Below are positions 10,476 through 13,059 of a DNA stretch of 28,822 bases, in pieces (within the stretch, counting starts at the first letter, position 1; every line of letters starts with the position of its first letter). Source of the DNA: Candidatus Hodarchaeota archaeon (lineage in GTDB: Archaea > Asgardarchaeota > Heimdallarchaeia > Hodarchaeales > Hodarchaeaceae). The stretch covers positions 1 to 28,822 of the forward strand of contig JAEOTC010000045.1 in NCBI GenBank assembly GCA_016840035.1, in the 5' to 3' direction. A model generated the notes under the pieces. That model had not been told where the DNA came from. It was given only the letters and a program-made list of their open reading frames with translations, and did not search any database. The position numbers and the translations under genes were made by a program.

Positions 10476-11414
10476 TTAGTTGAAATAATAACTTAAATTC
10501 CTTAATTGATTCTTAGTGGTAAAATTTCTAATACGTTTTCTGATAGCTGTAACGTATGGTGATTTTTCAATAGTTAAGATATGTTTATGAGCAGTTAGGA
10601 ACATCCAAACATTCCAAACAGCTCTGTACTTCCATCCTACTGTTCCAGGAAGCTGTAGCGAGCTGTAGCAAGAAATAAAAGGTGGCCGATATTTTTCAAA
10701 CAGCTCTAGAGTTAACCATTTTCGCGTTTTTTGGGAATATCTAACGTTTGGTACAGATCTCGATCCTTCTGGAGTATAGCAATCTCCAATAGCAGCATTT
10801 TTTCGCCAACCAATCCAATCAATAGATTCTAGCATGTCATTAAATGCCACCTGATGAGAAGGGCTACCCAATCCAAACCCATGTAAAGATTTATTTGTTA
10901 ATGAGCGAAACTTTGATATCCATGCAGCCACATCGTGAACACTTCCCTTTTCATTAATTTTTAATGAGGAAACCATTCCACCCATGCCAAGGTTCAATCC
11001 TGAGTAATCTGATAAATTTAGACTTGGAAAATGAACTACAGGTAAAATTGGATGTGTGACTTTCTGCTCTAGTTTAGACCAATTTGAAGTTGATTTTTTT
11101 CTTTCTCCGATGATATCGAGATTGACTATAAAATCATCATCATTTACTTCTACCTGTGTAAGGAAGTCAATATAATCCTTTAAGGGGATGATTGCCCCTG
11201 ATTGGTATGCACTAAAAGCCCCTGAATCAATCATAATCGGTCCGTCATAGGAGAAGAACTCATGTAATCCAAGCGATTTTATTTTTTGTATAGACTTTCT
11301 AAATTGCCAATATGAGAATAATATTCCATATCTGTGTTTACGCATGAATTGATTGATTTGATTTTCATAAACCCAAGGAAAAAATCCTTGTATCACACCG
11401 AGGAATAATTTCAA
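10476..11414 (-). CDS. TGT-fold (DpdA-like) guanine transglycosylase homolog A
   Basis: 'MIDSGAFS', 'NLD', 'PVVH', 'GMGGMV', 'LHGFGLG', 'SID..GWR'; no CxCxxC Zn site and no PUA domain; TTG start with GGGGAG upstream. Confidence 0.8.
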   Translation of the reverse strand: MKLFLGVIQGFFPWVYENQINQFMRKHRYGILFSYWQFRKSIQKIKSLGLHEFFSYDGPIMIDSGAFSAYQSGAIIPLKDYIDFLTQVEVNDDDFIVNLDIIGERKKSTSNWSKLEQKVTHPILPVVHFPSLNLSDYSGLNLGMGGMVSSLKINEKGSVHDVAAWISKFRSLTNKSLHGFGLGSPSHQVAFNDMLESIDWIGWRKNAAIGDCYTPEGSRSVPNVRYSQKTRKWLTLELFEKYRPPFISCYSSLQLPGTVGWKYRAVWNVWMFLTAHKHILTIEKSPYVTAIRKRIRNFTTKNQLRNLSYYFN

Positions 11415-11473
11415 GAGAAAGTTCTCCCCAAATATTTATTACTGAACGTTAGTCTTGTGTAAACAAAGGTTTC

Positions 11474-11486
11474 TTTAAATATTTAA
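11474..11486. promoter_or_regulatory. Palindromic TATA element, candidate bidirectional promoter between TGT-like A and DUF6884/TGT-like B
   Basis: TTAAATATTTAA (11475-11486) is a perfect palindrome; TTTAAATA ends about 25 nt upstream of ATG 11506. Confidence 0.45.
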
Positions 11487-11505
11487 TTTTCCTGTAAGGT
11501 CATTA

Positions 11506-12003
11506 ATGGTTAGTTCAAGGTTTAGCATTATGCTTTCATCAAAAATTCTTCTTATTATCTCATGTGGGAAGAAAAAGTCAGAGGTACTCAAATTTCGTGC
11601 CTTGAAGGCCAAGGAAGCATATCAGGGACCGATGTTTCAAGTTATAAATAAAGCTAAAAGGGAGGATAAATGGCCTACGAATCTAGAACTTGGTATAATA
11701 TCTGCAAAATACGGACTTTTACGATCTGATGACAAAATCGAAAATTATGATTTGAGGATGACTAAATCGATTGCAAAACAACAGAATCTCAGAGTAATTA
11801 AAAAATTACAGAAGTGGACAGAAGAAGAATATTTTTCCTTCATTTATATTCTTATGGGCAAGGATTATCTAGAGACTGTACGAGGAGTGGAAGATTACGT
11901 TCAAACCAATGTAGAAATCGAGAATATGGGGGGTTTGGGGATAGGTCAAAGAAAACTTGTAAATTTTATCAATTCAATAAATAACACGAGGTCGAAGAAG
12001 TGA
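11506..12003 (+). CDS. DUF6884 / YaaA-DpdC-like protein
   Basis: 'LLIISCGKKK', 'AKEAYQGPMF', 'IISAKYGL', 'IENYDLRM', 'GKDY', 'GIGQR' motifs; alternative start at 11530. Confidence 0.8.
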   Translation: MVSSRFSIMLSSKILLIISCGKKKSEVLKFRALKAKEAYQGPMFQVINKAKREDKWPTNLELGIISAKYGLLRSDDKIENYDLRMTKSIAKQQNLRVIKKLQKWTEEEYFSFIYILMGKDYLETVRGVEDYVQTNVEIENMGGLGIGQRKLVNFINSINNTRSKK

Positions 12004-12006
12004 GGA

Positions 12007-13059
12007 TTGGATAAAATGAGTTTCGCTTTGGGAACTCCTATCAGTGCTCGAATAAGGCCATGGAAATACGATTGGATAGTAAAACCTGATTTCTTGATGA
12101 TTTCAGCTATAGATTTTATGCAGAATCCGAAATTATTCACAACAATAAAAAGAACTGGAATTCATGAATATTTAGAATGGGATGGATCTTTGGTCTGTGA
12201 TTCAGGGGCATTTTCCGCCATTAATCGAAAAAAGAAAATCACACCAAGTATTGACTTACTAAAAGATTATTATCGTGAACTAATAAATCAAGATCCTGAG
12301 ATAATCAAAATTACTCTTGATTATCCAGATGATAAGATTGTCTCGAATTATTTAGAATTACAGCCTTATGAAATACAACCCGTTATACCATATGATCAAT
12401 TACAAATTTTGGACCAAATTGTTTCAGAAGTCGGATTTCCTGCGTGGAATTTTATTGGACGCTTAGTACCTTTAATGAGAGGAGGAAGTGGTTATAAAGA
12501 AAGATTATTCGAGGCTTTATACACGTTTAAGAGTAAATTAGAGAGTTTATCATCTACTCAAAAGACTAAAATTTGGGCTTTAGGAGTCGGTGCTCCGAGT
12601 ATTATACTCGAAGTCTTATCTGAAGTTGATGGTTGTGATTCTTCTCGCTGGAGGATTACTGCGTCAAATATGGTCATGCTACCAGATGGGGGTGAACGAG
12701 GGATTGGGAATAGAACTAAATGGAGAGGTACTCATCATCGAATCGAAGATGGAACTGAAAAACAACGTGTAATTAGTATTTTAAGACAGATTGATTCTCT
12801 TTCTGGAGGAATAGAAACTCTTGACTCATCCTTACATGAAACTGCCCTCCCAAAACAGCTTAAAGATAAATTTGAGGTGAATCTACCACAAATTGGCAGT
12901 TTAATAGAAAAAATCAGAGATCCTGATCTAGAAGTTACAGTTTATGAATTAGAATTACTTTTCAGAACTTCTGGAAATTTACGCCTTGTATTCAACTACA
13001 TTGCAGCCTTAAACTATAAACTGGACGATAATTCTCGTATTCATATTGGGAAAAACTGA
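12007..13059 (+). CDS. TGT-fold (DpdA-like) guanine transglycosylase homolog B
   Basis: 'GIHEYLEWDG..VCDSGAFS', 'TLDYP', 'PVIP', 'IGRLVP', 'WALGVGAP', 'DGCDSSRWR'; no Zn motif; 3 nt after the DUF6884 stop. Confidence 0.8.
   Translation: MDKMSFALGTPISARIRPWKYDWIVKPDFLMISAIDFMQNPKLFTTIKRTGIHEYLEWDGSLVCDSGAFSAINRKKKITPSIDLLKDYYRELINQDPEIIKITLDYPDDKIVSNYLELQPYEIQPVIPYDQLQILDQIVSEVGFPAWNFIGRLVPLMRGGSGYKERLFEALYTFKSKLESLSSTQKTKIWALGVGAPSIILEVLSEVDGCDSSRWRITASNMVMLPDGGERGIGNRTKWRGTHHRIEDGTEKQRVISILRQIDSLSGGIETLDSSLHETALPKQLKDKFEVNLPQIGSLIEKIRDPDLEVTVYELELLFRTSGNLRLVFNYIAALNYKLDDNSRIHIGKN

Follow-up and report, generated by a model that had tools for sequence, protein, structure and literature searches.

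A 28,822-nucleotide contig of a Candidatus Hodarchaeota archaeon (JAEOTC010000045.1, assembly GCA_016840035.1), referred to below as the window, contains two genes, A and B, whose products have the fold of tRNA-guanine transglycosylases (TGTs) and seem best regarded as two distinct zinc-less members of the viral type of DpdA, the DNA transglycosylase, rather than as tRNA TGTs. Together with a gene for a small DUF6884 protein that immediately precedes B, they most likely form a chromosomal module for the modification of DNA with 7-deazaguanine bases. The organism belongs to an order of Heimdall-class Asgard archaea for which the name Hodarchaeales is used here, following the NCBI labels. Among archaea, Hodarchaeales are regarded as the nearest relatives of eukaryotes.

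A first-pass annotation of this locus had described A and B as divergent zinc-less TGT paralogues that retain their catalytic aspartates and might work as a heterodimer. Both open reading frames (ORFs) are present where that annotation had placed them, and all the motifs that it quoted are invariant, or nearly so, in alignments of 23 A and 26 B orthologues, to which the residue conservation given below refers. Its tRNA-TGT framing, on the other hand, was not borne out, the family affinity of both proteins being with DpdA.

Fold, catalytic residues and base pockets

The presence of the TGT fold in both proteins has been established by structure prediction and structural alignment. The AlphaFold 2 models (predicted local distance difference test scores of 89 for A and 87 for B) display a barrel plus terminal helices, and the top PDB matches of both, obtained with Foldseek and VIA-align, are all TGT or DpdA structures. 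In VIA-align superpositions, the archaeosine TGT (arcTGT) of Pyrococcus horikoshii (1iq8) aligns with A at Z 24.2 (279 aligned residues, root-mean-square deviation 3.4) and with B at Z 19.4 (270 aligned residues, root-mean-square deviation 3.9), and the DNA preQ0 insertase DpdA (7ui4) aligns with A at Z 20.6 and 19% identity. Neither protein reaches the gathering threshold of the Pfam TGT family (PF01702), their scores being 16.2 bits for A and 16.3 bits for B against a cut-off of 26.3. The homology between the two, postulated as paralogy, goes far beyond chance: they are 24% identical in BLASTP (E=8e-11), hhalign pairs them over 202 columns with a probability of 98% (E=2.9e-13) and brings the three catalytic aspartates into register, and a genome-wide search with the B profile recovers A at E=5e-7. 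What does not stand is the notion of sister paralogues, judging from the quick tree described in the next section.

Three aspartates, equivalent to D102, D156 and D280 of the Zymomonas mobilis enzyme, are invariant in both families, so that the retention of the catalytic aspartates is confirmed. These correspond to the aspartate of the DSGA(F/Y)S motif (D63 in A, D65 in B), the 'LD' aspartate (D100 in A, D105 in B) and the aspartate at the nucleophile position, which is located within SxDWxGWR in A (D199) and within GCDSxRWR in B (D211). All of them align to their counterparts in arcTGT and in bacterial-DpdA-like proteins, as well as to each other. The N-terminal G(L/I)HE(F/Y)..DG segment that had been singled out as common to the pair is certainly present in both, although it is not specific to them; E. 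coli TGT carries it too, which makes it a general motif of the TGT superfamily preceding DSG and no special feature of A and B.

The predicted lack of the zinc site is equally clear. Cysteines occur only at positions 212 and 249 in A and at positions 64 and 210 in B, and a structural CxCxxC zinc site is impossible in either protein because each has just two of them. The zinc-ligand helix is altered as anticipated, reading RA(V/L)WN in A and RL(V/I)FN in B, with Trp and Phe, respectively, at the position of the ligand His. Nevertheless, the loss of zinc cannot be taken as a special feature of this pair. It is the rule in viral-type DpdA, given that 140 of the 149 nearest representatives are zinc-less and just 9 contain CxCxxC, and the zinc-less state is therefore not peculiar to A and B. 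In a joint alignment, the DpdA proteins of phage EC151 and of the Sulfolobus virus STSV2 are likewise zinc-less, and carry an aromatic or aliphatic residue at the TGT zinc-His position. The bacterial-DpdA-like proteins that bear CxCxxC match the DpdA models of PADLOC, and in the bacterial DpdA, unlike in A and B, four insertions are present and a zinc site (CXCX2CX22H) has a structural role (PMC10164549).

The contrasting motifs from which different base pockets had been predicted (PVVH, GGM and HGFG in A versus PVIP, IGRL and WALG in B) were confirmed, and the pockets differ at two positions. In A, the histidine of DpdA is retained as an invariant H128 (PVxH), together with the GGMV motif, as in phage DpdA1 and arcTGT. 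In B, an invariant Pro128 occupies the position of this histidine, and an invariant Arg152, unique among the aligned proteins, stands where the GG motif has its second Gly (IGRLVP). Moreover, B contains a helical insert of ~60 residues where the zinc subdomain would sit. The enzyme DpdA2 also lacks the DpdA histidine, yet it is active, its preference among bases being shifted (PMC6884629, PMC10516641), and it is plausible that the His-to-Pro and GG-to-GR changes give B a different base or site specificity. The possibility that Arg152 marks a pocket specific for CDG common to B and STSV2 DpdA was rejected, since STSV2 has GG at this position.

Placement of A and B within the DpdA family

A search with the profile of the A family recovered 3615 cluster representatives at E<=1e-3, mostly of 250-350 residues, and the relatives sampled among them match either PHROG 887, a phage family named 'queuine tRNA-ribosyltransferase' that corresponds to DpdA, or DpdA in PADLOC. 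A itself matches phrog_887 over nearly its full length (E=1.9e-17, residues 14-286), and tblastn with A matched 83 phage records at DpdA genes, including that of Enterobacter phage EC151, which adjoins queD and folE in a genome that encodes a deazaguanine DNA-modification pathway. With the viral DpdA1 proteins (phages 9g, CAjan and EC151; PHROG 887; PMC6884629) A shares a single-domain TGT barrel of ~300 residues, the three aspartates, the PVxH histidine, the GGMV motif and a zinc-less RAxFNxW helix. Unlike them, A is encoded in the chromosome of a cellular archaeon and inherited vertically, displays only 23-33% identity to the phage proteins, has its own DWxGWRRNAA and YTPEGS signatures, lacks preQ0 synthesis genes in its vicinity and is paired with a second, different DpdA.

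The affinities of B point elsewhere in the family. Among 50,697 phage and virus records, tblastn with B matched only the DpdA genes of the Sulfolobus viruses STSV1, STSV2 and STSV4, at E ~1e-4 and 30% identity over 56% of B, and its nearest viral structural neighbours are DpdA-like proteins of phages and archaeal viruses. The joint alignment reveals that B shares the motifs DSSxWR and LPxGGER with bacterial DpdA and STSV2. Like B, the STSV1 and STSV2 enzymes are zinc-less, carry DxSxxR and LPGxGER and fall into the same clade; unlike B, STSV2 DpdA has neither Pro in place of the DpdA histidine, nor Arg in the GG motif, nor the helical insert. It has been established that the DNA of STSV2 carries dCDG (PMC10516641). 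Membership of A or B in DpdA4/DUF6610 was considered and rejected, as there was no Pfam match at E<0.01.

A quick maximum-likelihood tree recovers the A and the B proteins as two monophyletic groups (SH-aLRT 99-100) that are not each other's sisters. B groups with STSV2 DpdA, bacterial-DpdA-like proteins and arcTGT (SH-aLRT 95), and A stands beside a large clade of phage DpdA1-like proteins at a weakly supported node. The two genes thus look like separate DpdA lineages and not like the product of a local duplication. The outgroups closest to A (P0103-P0105) are singletons, and the genes around them, e.g., those for pilin-like domains of unknown function (DUFs) and for actin, are unrelated, so that these outgroups give no clue to an ancestral system.

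Both A and B consist of a single catalytic domain (312 and 347 residues) and are devoid of PUA or C-terminal tRNA-binding domains. Elsewhere, in a 646-residue frame, the genome encodes a canonical arcTGT that does have C-terminal domains, and the genus keeps arcTGT together with two PTPS/QueD-like genes (window genome, G066, G074, G058, G071 and G070). The pair resembles eukaryotic QTRT1/QTRT2 in that two divergent TGT-fold proteins coexist in one organism. It differs from them in that the substrate of QTRT1/QTRT2 is tRNA and in that A and B come from different DpdA lineages, both possess the aspartates and both are zinc-less; QTRT2 is catalytically dead by residue loss, and both QTRT subunits keep the zinc site.

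Distribution and gene order in Hodarchaeales

In a survey of 400 Asgard genomes, strong orthologues of A and B (E<1e-100) are confined to two families of a single order, that of the window (f1) and its sister family (f2). The genomes that encode B number 23; A is encoded in 19, all of which carry B as well, none having A alone. Among the genomes with B only, the contig stops exactly where A would be expected in three (G060, G072 and G077), and the fourth (G079) is a fragmented assembly of 860 contigs whose B contig was left out of this check of contig ends. Consequently, A and B co-occur wherever the contigs permit checking, in agreement with the phyletic coupling that a functional pair had been expected to show.

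The comparison of gene order across 20 loci uncovered a conserved core. DUF6884 lies immediately upstream of B in 20/20 loci, A lies divergently upstream of DUF6884-B in 18/18, and a gene for a methyltransferase of ~800 residues follows B in all 19 loci that extend past it, sometimes with a major facilitator superfamily (MFS) gene in between. Upstream of A, most loci contain a DNA methyltransferase gene, either Eco57I-like or encoding a 446-residue N6_N4 enzyme. Some variation exists between A and DUF6884: a DUF362 gene is inserted at this point in seven genomes, and in two others (G069:C11 and G070:C4; loci L020 and L022) A and DUF6884 are separated by ~12 kb that include the gene of a ~2980-residue protein and three smaller genes. 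The wider region, with YjbQ, TFIIB, HflX and a subtilase, is syntenic within the genus, which argues that the locus is core and vertically inherited and not a mobile island. An apparent fusion of B in G064 (574 residues; L024, G064:C1, 8880-10604) was discarded as a scaffold artefact, in which a run of N (X in translation) leads into ornithine carbamoyltransferase-like sequence.

The DUF6884 partner and the supply of precursors

The protein encoded between A and B in the window matches DUF6884 (PF21818, E=6.4e-16) and YaaA (PF03883, E=1.4e-8) in Pfam, as well as PDC-M57A (E=5e-13) and DpdC (E=1.8e-6, over residues 24-88 alone) in PADLOC. It has about half the length of DpdC and keeps both motifs of the DUF6884 family, CxxxK in the form of CGKKK and LSAxxG in the form of ISAKYG; the family and these motifs have been described, and the family has been reported as DNA-binding (PMC11701544). 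In the bacterial system, DpdC turns preQ0-DNA into 7-amido-7-deazaguanine (ADG)-DNA independently of DpdA (PMC10164549). The candidate roles for the DUF6884 protein are the tailoring of an inserted base, by analogy with DpdC, and the binding of a DNA lesion.

The bacterial Dpd system (DpdA/DpdB/DpdC of Salmonella Montevideo; 7ui4; PMC10164549) resembles the present locus in combining a transglycosylase with a partner of the YaaA fold. It departs from it in having the DpdB ATPase, the DpdD-K restriction genes, one transglycosylase instead of two and a DpdC twice the size of the DUF6884 protein.

Related gene combinations were also observed in defence islands of other Heimdall families. One of them (L042, G081:C26, 5918-12602) contains genes for a DUF6884 protein (241 residues), an AIPR/Mrr_cat protein (712 residues), a 247-residue protein, a TGT-like protein with CxCxxC (381 residues) and two N6_N4 methyltransferases, and is adjoined by a gene for a CHAT-TPR protein. 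In another family (L036, G014:C13, 6690-9104), tandem genes for DpdA-like proteins of 392 and 389 residues, 56% identical to each other, adjoin a PLD/NgoFVII-type restriction endonuclease gene; these twins are an independent arrangement that arose by recent duplication. Both the DUF6884/TGT-like/methyltransferase island and the locus with twin DpdA genes and a nuclease support a DNA-directed role of such combinations.

Regarding the origin of the modified base, no QueC was found in the genome of the window, where the best 'QueC' match is ThiI, nor in five near-complete relatives, one of them a closed 4.9-Mb genome; the apparent QueC matches were rejected as ThiI (162 bits) or short PP-loop matches. 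QueE gave no match above the cut-off. A transporter of the YhhQ/Vut_1 family is encoded in 5/5 genomes (118-123 bits). The lack of QueC, together with the presence of a YhhQ-type importer, implies that any 7-deazaguanine used is probably imported, and suggests that the precursors are salvaged.

A predicted DNA modification pathway and its alternatives

The reading that we favour, with moderate confidence, is that, after replication, the locus replaces guanine in DNA with a 7-deazaguanine obtained by salvage, and that the specificity of A is not that of B, be it for the base, for the site or for both. According to this model, each of the two proteins would act as an enzyme in its own right, using an aspartate nucleophile to excise guanine from double-stranded DNA and inserting a 7-deazaguanine base in its place. 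The pocket of A is the canonical one of DpdA (His128, GG); in B the pocket is modified (Pro128, Arg152) and the insert that faces the DNA is of another kind; on account of these differences in pocket and insert, the two enzymes probably differ in the base that they accept, in sequence context or in both. B and DUF6884 form an invariant putative operon; the product of DUF6884, by analogy to DpdC, would act on the inserted base in DNA, e.g., by converting a nitrile into an amide, or may alternatively bind a flipped or abasic site. The base itself would be salvaged by YhhQ-type import, and the module and the DNA methyltransferases on its flanks would together mark the cellular DNA in a heritable manner. 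In this model, DNA as the substrate, the nature of the base, the part played by DUF6884 and the independent action of A and B are predictions, made from the observed fold, homology, catalytic residues, lack of a zinc site, gene order, phyletic pattern and family affinities.

Several observations weigh against this reading. The sequence link of B to characterized DpdA is weak: its match to phrog_887 is marginal (E=7.7e-4), the DpdA models of PADLOC match neither B nor A, and a PDB search with the B profile found no TGT, so that what ties B to the TGTs is its fold, together with its homology to A. The maximum-likelihood tree was a quick one, with unresolved deep nodes and with rows picked by their similarity to A. 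There is no DpdB-type ATPase at the locus, though bacterial DpdA requires one. The inherited synteny of the region makes the adjacency of the methyltransferases weaker evidence of shared function, and the strict co-occurrence of A and B would equally be expected from an obligate complex.

This last point bears directly on the heterodimer suggested by the first-pass annotation, which the analysis does not support. The other two ideas of that annotation, action on opposite strands and use of different bases, may hold. One alternative, which we regard as unlikely, is that A and B constitute an obligate heterodimer similar to QTRT1/QTRT2 or to the dimeric TGTs of bacteria and archaea, in which one subunit holds the DNA while the other catalyses, or in which each takes one strand of an asymmetric site. 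The co-occurrence (19 genomes with both genes, none with A only, the B-only cases being on short or fragmented contigs) fits a complex, but it equally fits two enzymes in one pathway. It is also in line with a heterodimer that tRNA TGTs act as dimers (PMC6884629) and that the neighbouring methyltransferases, Eco57I-like and tandem-domain N6_N4, are of types used for asymmetric sites. Nevertheless, all three catalytic aspartates are retained in both proteins, unlike in a dead partner of the QTRT2 type, the quick tree does not place A and B as sisters, and A is transcribed away from B, at a distance that reaches ~12 kb in G069 and G070, the invariant pair being DUF6884-B. In addition, both proteins lack the zinc subdomain, which makes up much of the dimer interface of bacterial TGTs. 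Consistent with independent action, the solved bacterial DpdA is monomeric both in the crystal and in solution (PMC10164549). A prediction of the A+B complex, run without controls, scored 0.00 in both runs and speaks neither for nor against binding.

A further alternative is that one or both proteins are lineage-specific housekeeping enzymes that exchange bases in RNA (tRNA or rRNA) and do not act on DNA. Vertical inheritance in synteny with TFIIB, HflX and YjbQ, the lack of a recognizable nuclease at the locus and the fact that the best structural match in the PDB is an archaeosine TGT would all agree with it. We nonetheless consider it quite improbable, given that the genome already has a canonical arcTGT with C-terminal domains, that neither A nor B has a PUA or any C-terminal RNA-binding domain, and that the flanking genes encode DNA methyltransferases. 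Furthermore, the closest sequence relatives are viral DpdAs, a family of which all tested members insert into DNA (PMC10516641), and the DUF6884 partner comes from a DNA-binding family (PMC11701544). It has also been contemplated that at least one of the pair might be a DNA glycosylase or eraser that removes 7-deazaguanine or another odd base from the DNA of invading viruses in defence of the cell, or that proofreads the marks, with DUF6884 binding the resulting abasic site. In favour of such an activity, the DUF6884 member YfjM was among the proteins found to interact with abasic and RNA-base lesions (PMC11701544), antiviral DNA glycosylases directed at modified bases are reported in a preprint (10.1101/2025.10.29.685425), and related TGT-like and DUF6884 genes reside in the defence islands of other Heimdall families next to AIPR/Mrr or PLD nucleases. 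Yet the locus studied here is core and syntenic in the order and not a variable island, and both proteins have the full catalytic set of a TGT (general acid/base, base-binding and nucleophile aspartates). To our knowledge, no TGT-fold enzyme acts as a hydrolytic glycosylase, and an eraser function is accordingly held to be very doubtful.

Taking the favoured DNA exchange reading further, it may be proposed, tentatively, that 7-deazaguanine marks, of one kind or of two, are present in the chromosomes of Hodarchaeales. Two specialised viral-type DpdAs, domesticated by the cell, would write these marks from salvaged precursors, and the minimal DpdC-like DUF6884 protein would tailor one of the marks further. 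Together with the methylation of adenine or cytosine, the marks would constitute an epigenetic or anti-viral signature that is heritable and involves no nuclease. The modification of DNA with 7-deazaguanines is already known from phages, archaeal viruses and bacterial Dpd islands. What would be new, if this is true, is a system that is order-wide and vertically inherited in a cellular archaeon, that combines two non-sister DpdAs with a mini DpdC-like protein, and that does without DpdB, without a recognizable nuclease and without de novo preQ0 synthesis. Such a system would provide a function for DUF6884, would show that viral DpdA can be domesticated, and would lead one to expect that Asgard DNA contains a base not yet described. 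A search of one literature collection found no paper on such a system in Hodarchaeales.

Layout of the locus and neighbouring genes

The positions of the main features are collected in Table 1. The ORF of B opens at TTG 12007, and family alignments place its start at the ATG given in the table, 12 nt past the stop codon of DUF6884 and with GTGAGGA just 5′ of it. The spacer between A and DUF6884 contains two TATA-like stretches (~11430-11441 and ~11474-11491), each located ~15-30 nt from a start codon, which are read as putative promoters.

Table 1. Features of the twin-DpdA locus and its flanking methyltransferase genes, in positions of the window.
Feature	Position	Strand	Description
Eco57I/MmeI-type N6-adenine DNA methyltransferase	7641..10442	plus	933 aa; TaqI_C specificity domain (Pfam/PADLOC)
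A	10476..11414	minus	312-aa zinc-less protein of apparent DpdA transglycosylase type, phage DpdA1-like (DWxGWR); TTG start
A catalytic aspartate codons	D63 11226-11228; D100 11115-11117; D199 10818-10820	minus	
A-DUF6884 spacer	11415..11505		91 bp, AT-rich, divergent intergenic
DUF6884 gene	11506..12003	plus	165 aa; family of the YaaA/DpdC-like 'cantaloupe' fold
B	12016..13059	plus	347-aa zinc-less protein of apparent DpdA transglycosylase type, STSV/bacterial-DpdA-like (DSxRWR...LPxGGER)
B catalytic aspartate codons	D65 12199-12201; D105 12319-12321; D211 12637-12639	plus	
N6_N4 DNA methyltransferase	13120..15486	plus	788 aa; strong domain at residues 374-656

Scans of all the window ORFs against Pfam and PADLOC identified no ParB-like, helicase or nuclease partner. 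In the Eco57I/MmeI-like methyltransferase, the N-terminal 190 residues have almost no invariant positions across nine aligned orthologues and no obvious PD-(D/E)xK motif, and this protein may be a methylase without a nuclease part (PglX-like), as opposed to a type IIG nuclease-methylase. The N6_N4 methyltransferase downstream of B contains, in addition to its strong domain, a weak second methyltransferase-like domain (residues 63-162; PF01555, E=3e-4), and may therefore be a tandem two-domain methylase.

The window as a whole has a GC content of ~35%, and its top protein matches are labelled Heimdallarchaeota B3_Heim and Hodarchaeales at NCBI. It contains, among others, a TFIIB gene and a profilin-like ORF. 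The latter (6954-7481; Pfam Profilin, E=0.007; orthologues of 122 residues) is syntenic upstream of the methyltransferase in eight loci. Finally, a single ORF of 462 residues (3003-4391) joins the C-terminal domain of BpsA, the branched-chain polyamine synthase, to an AdoMet decarboxylase domain, a fusion that is also found on a B3_Heim contig (L010).

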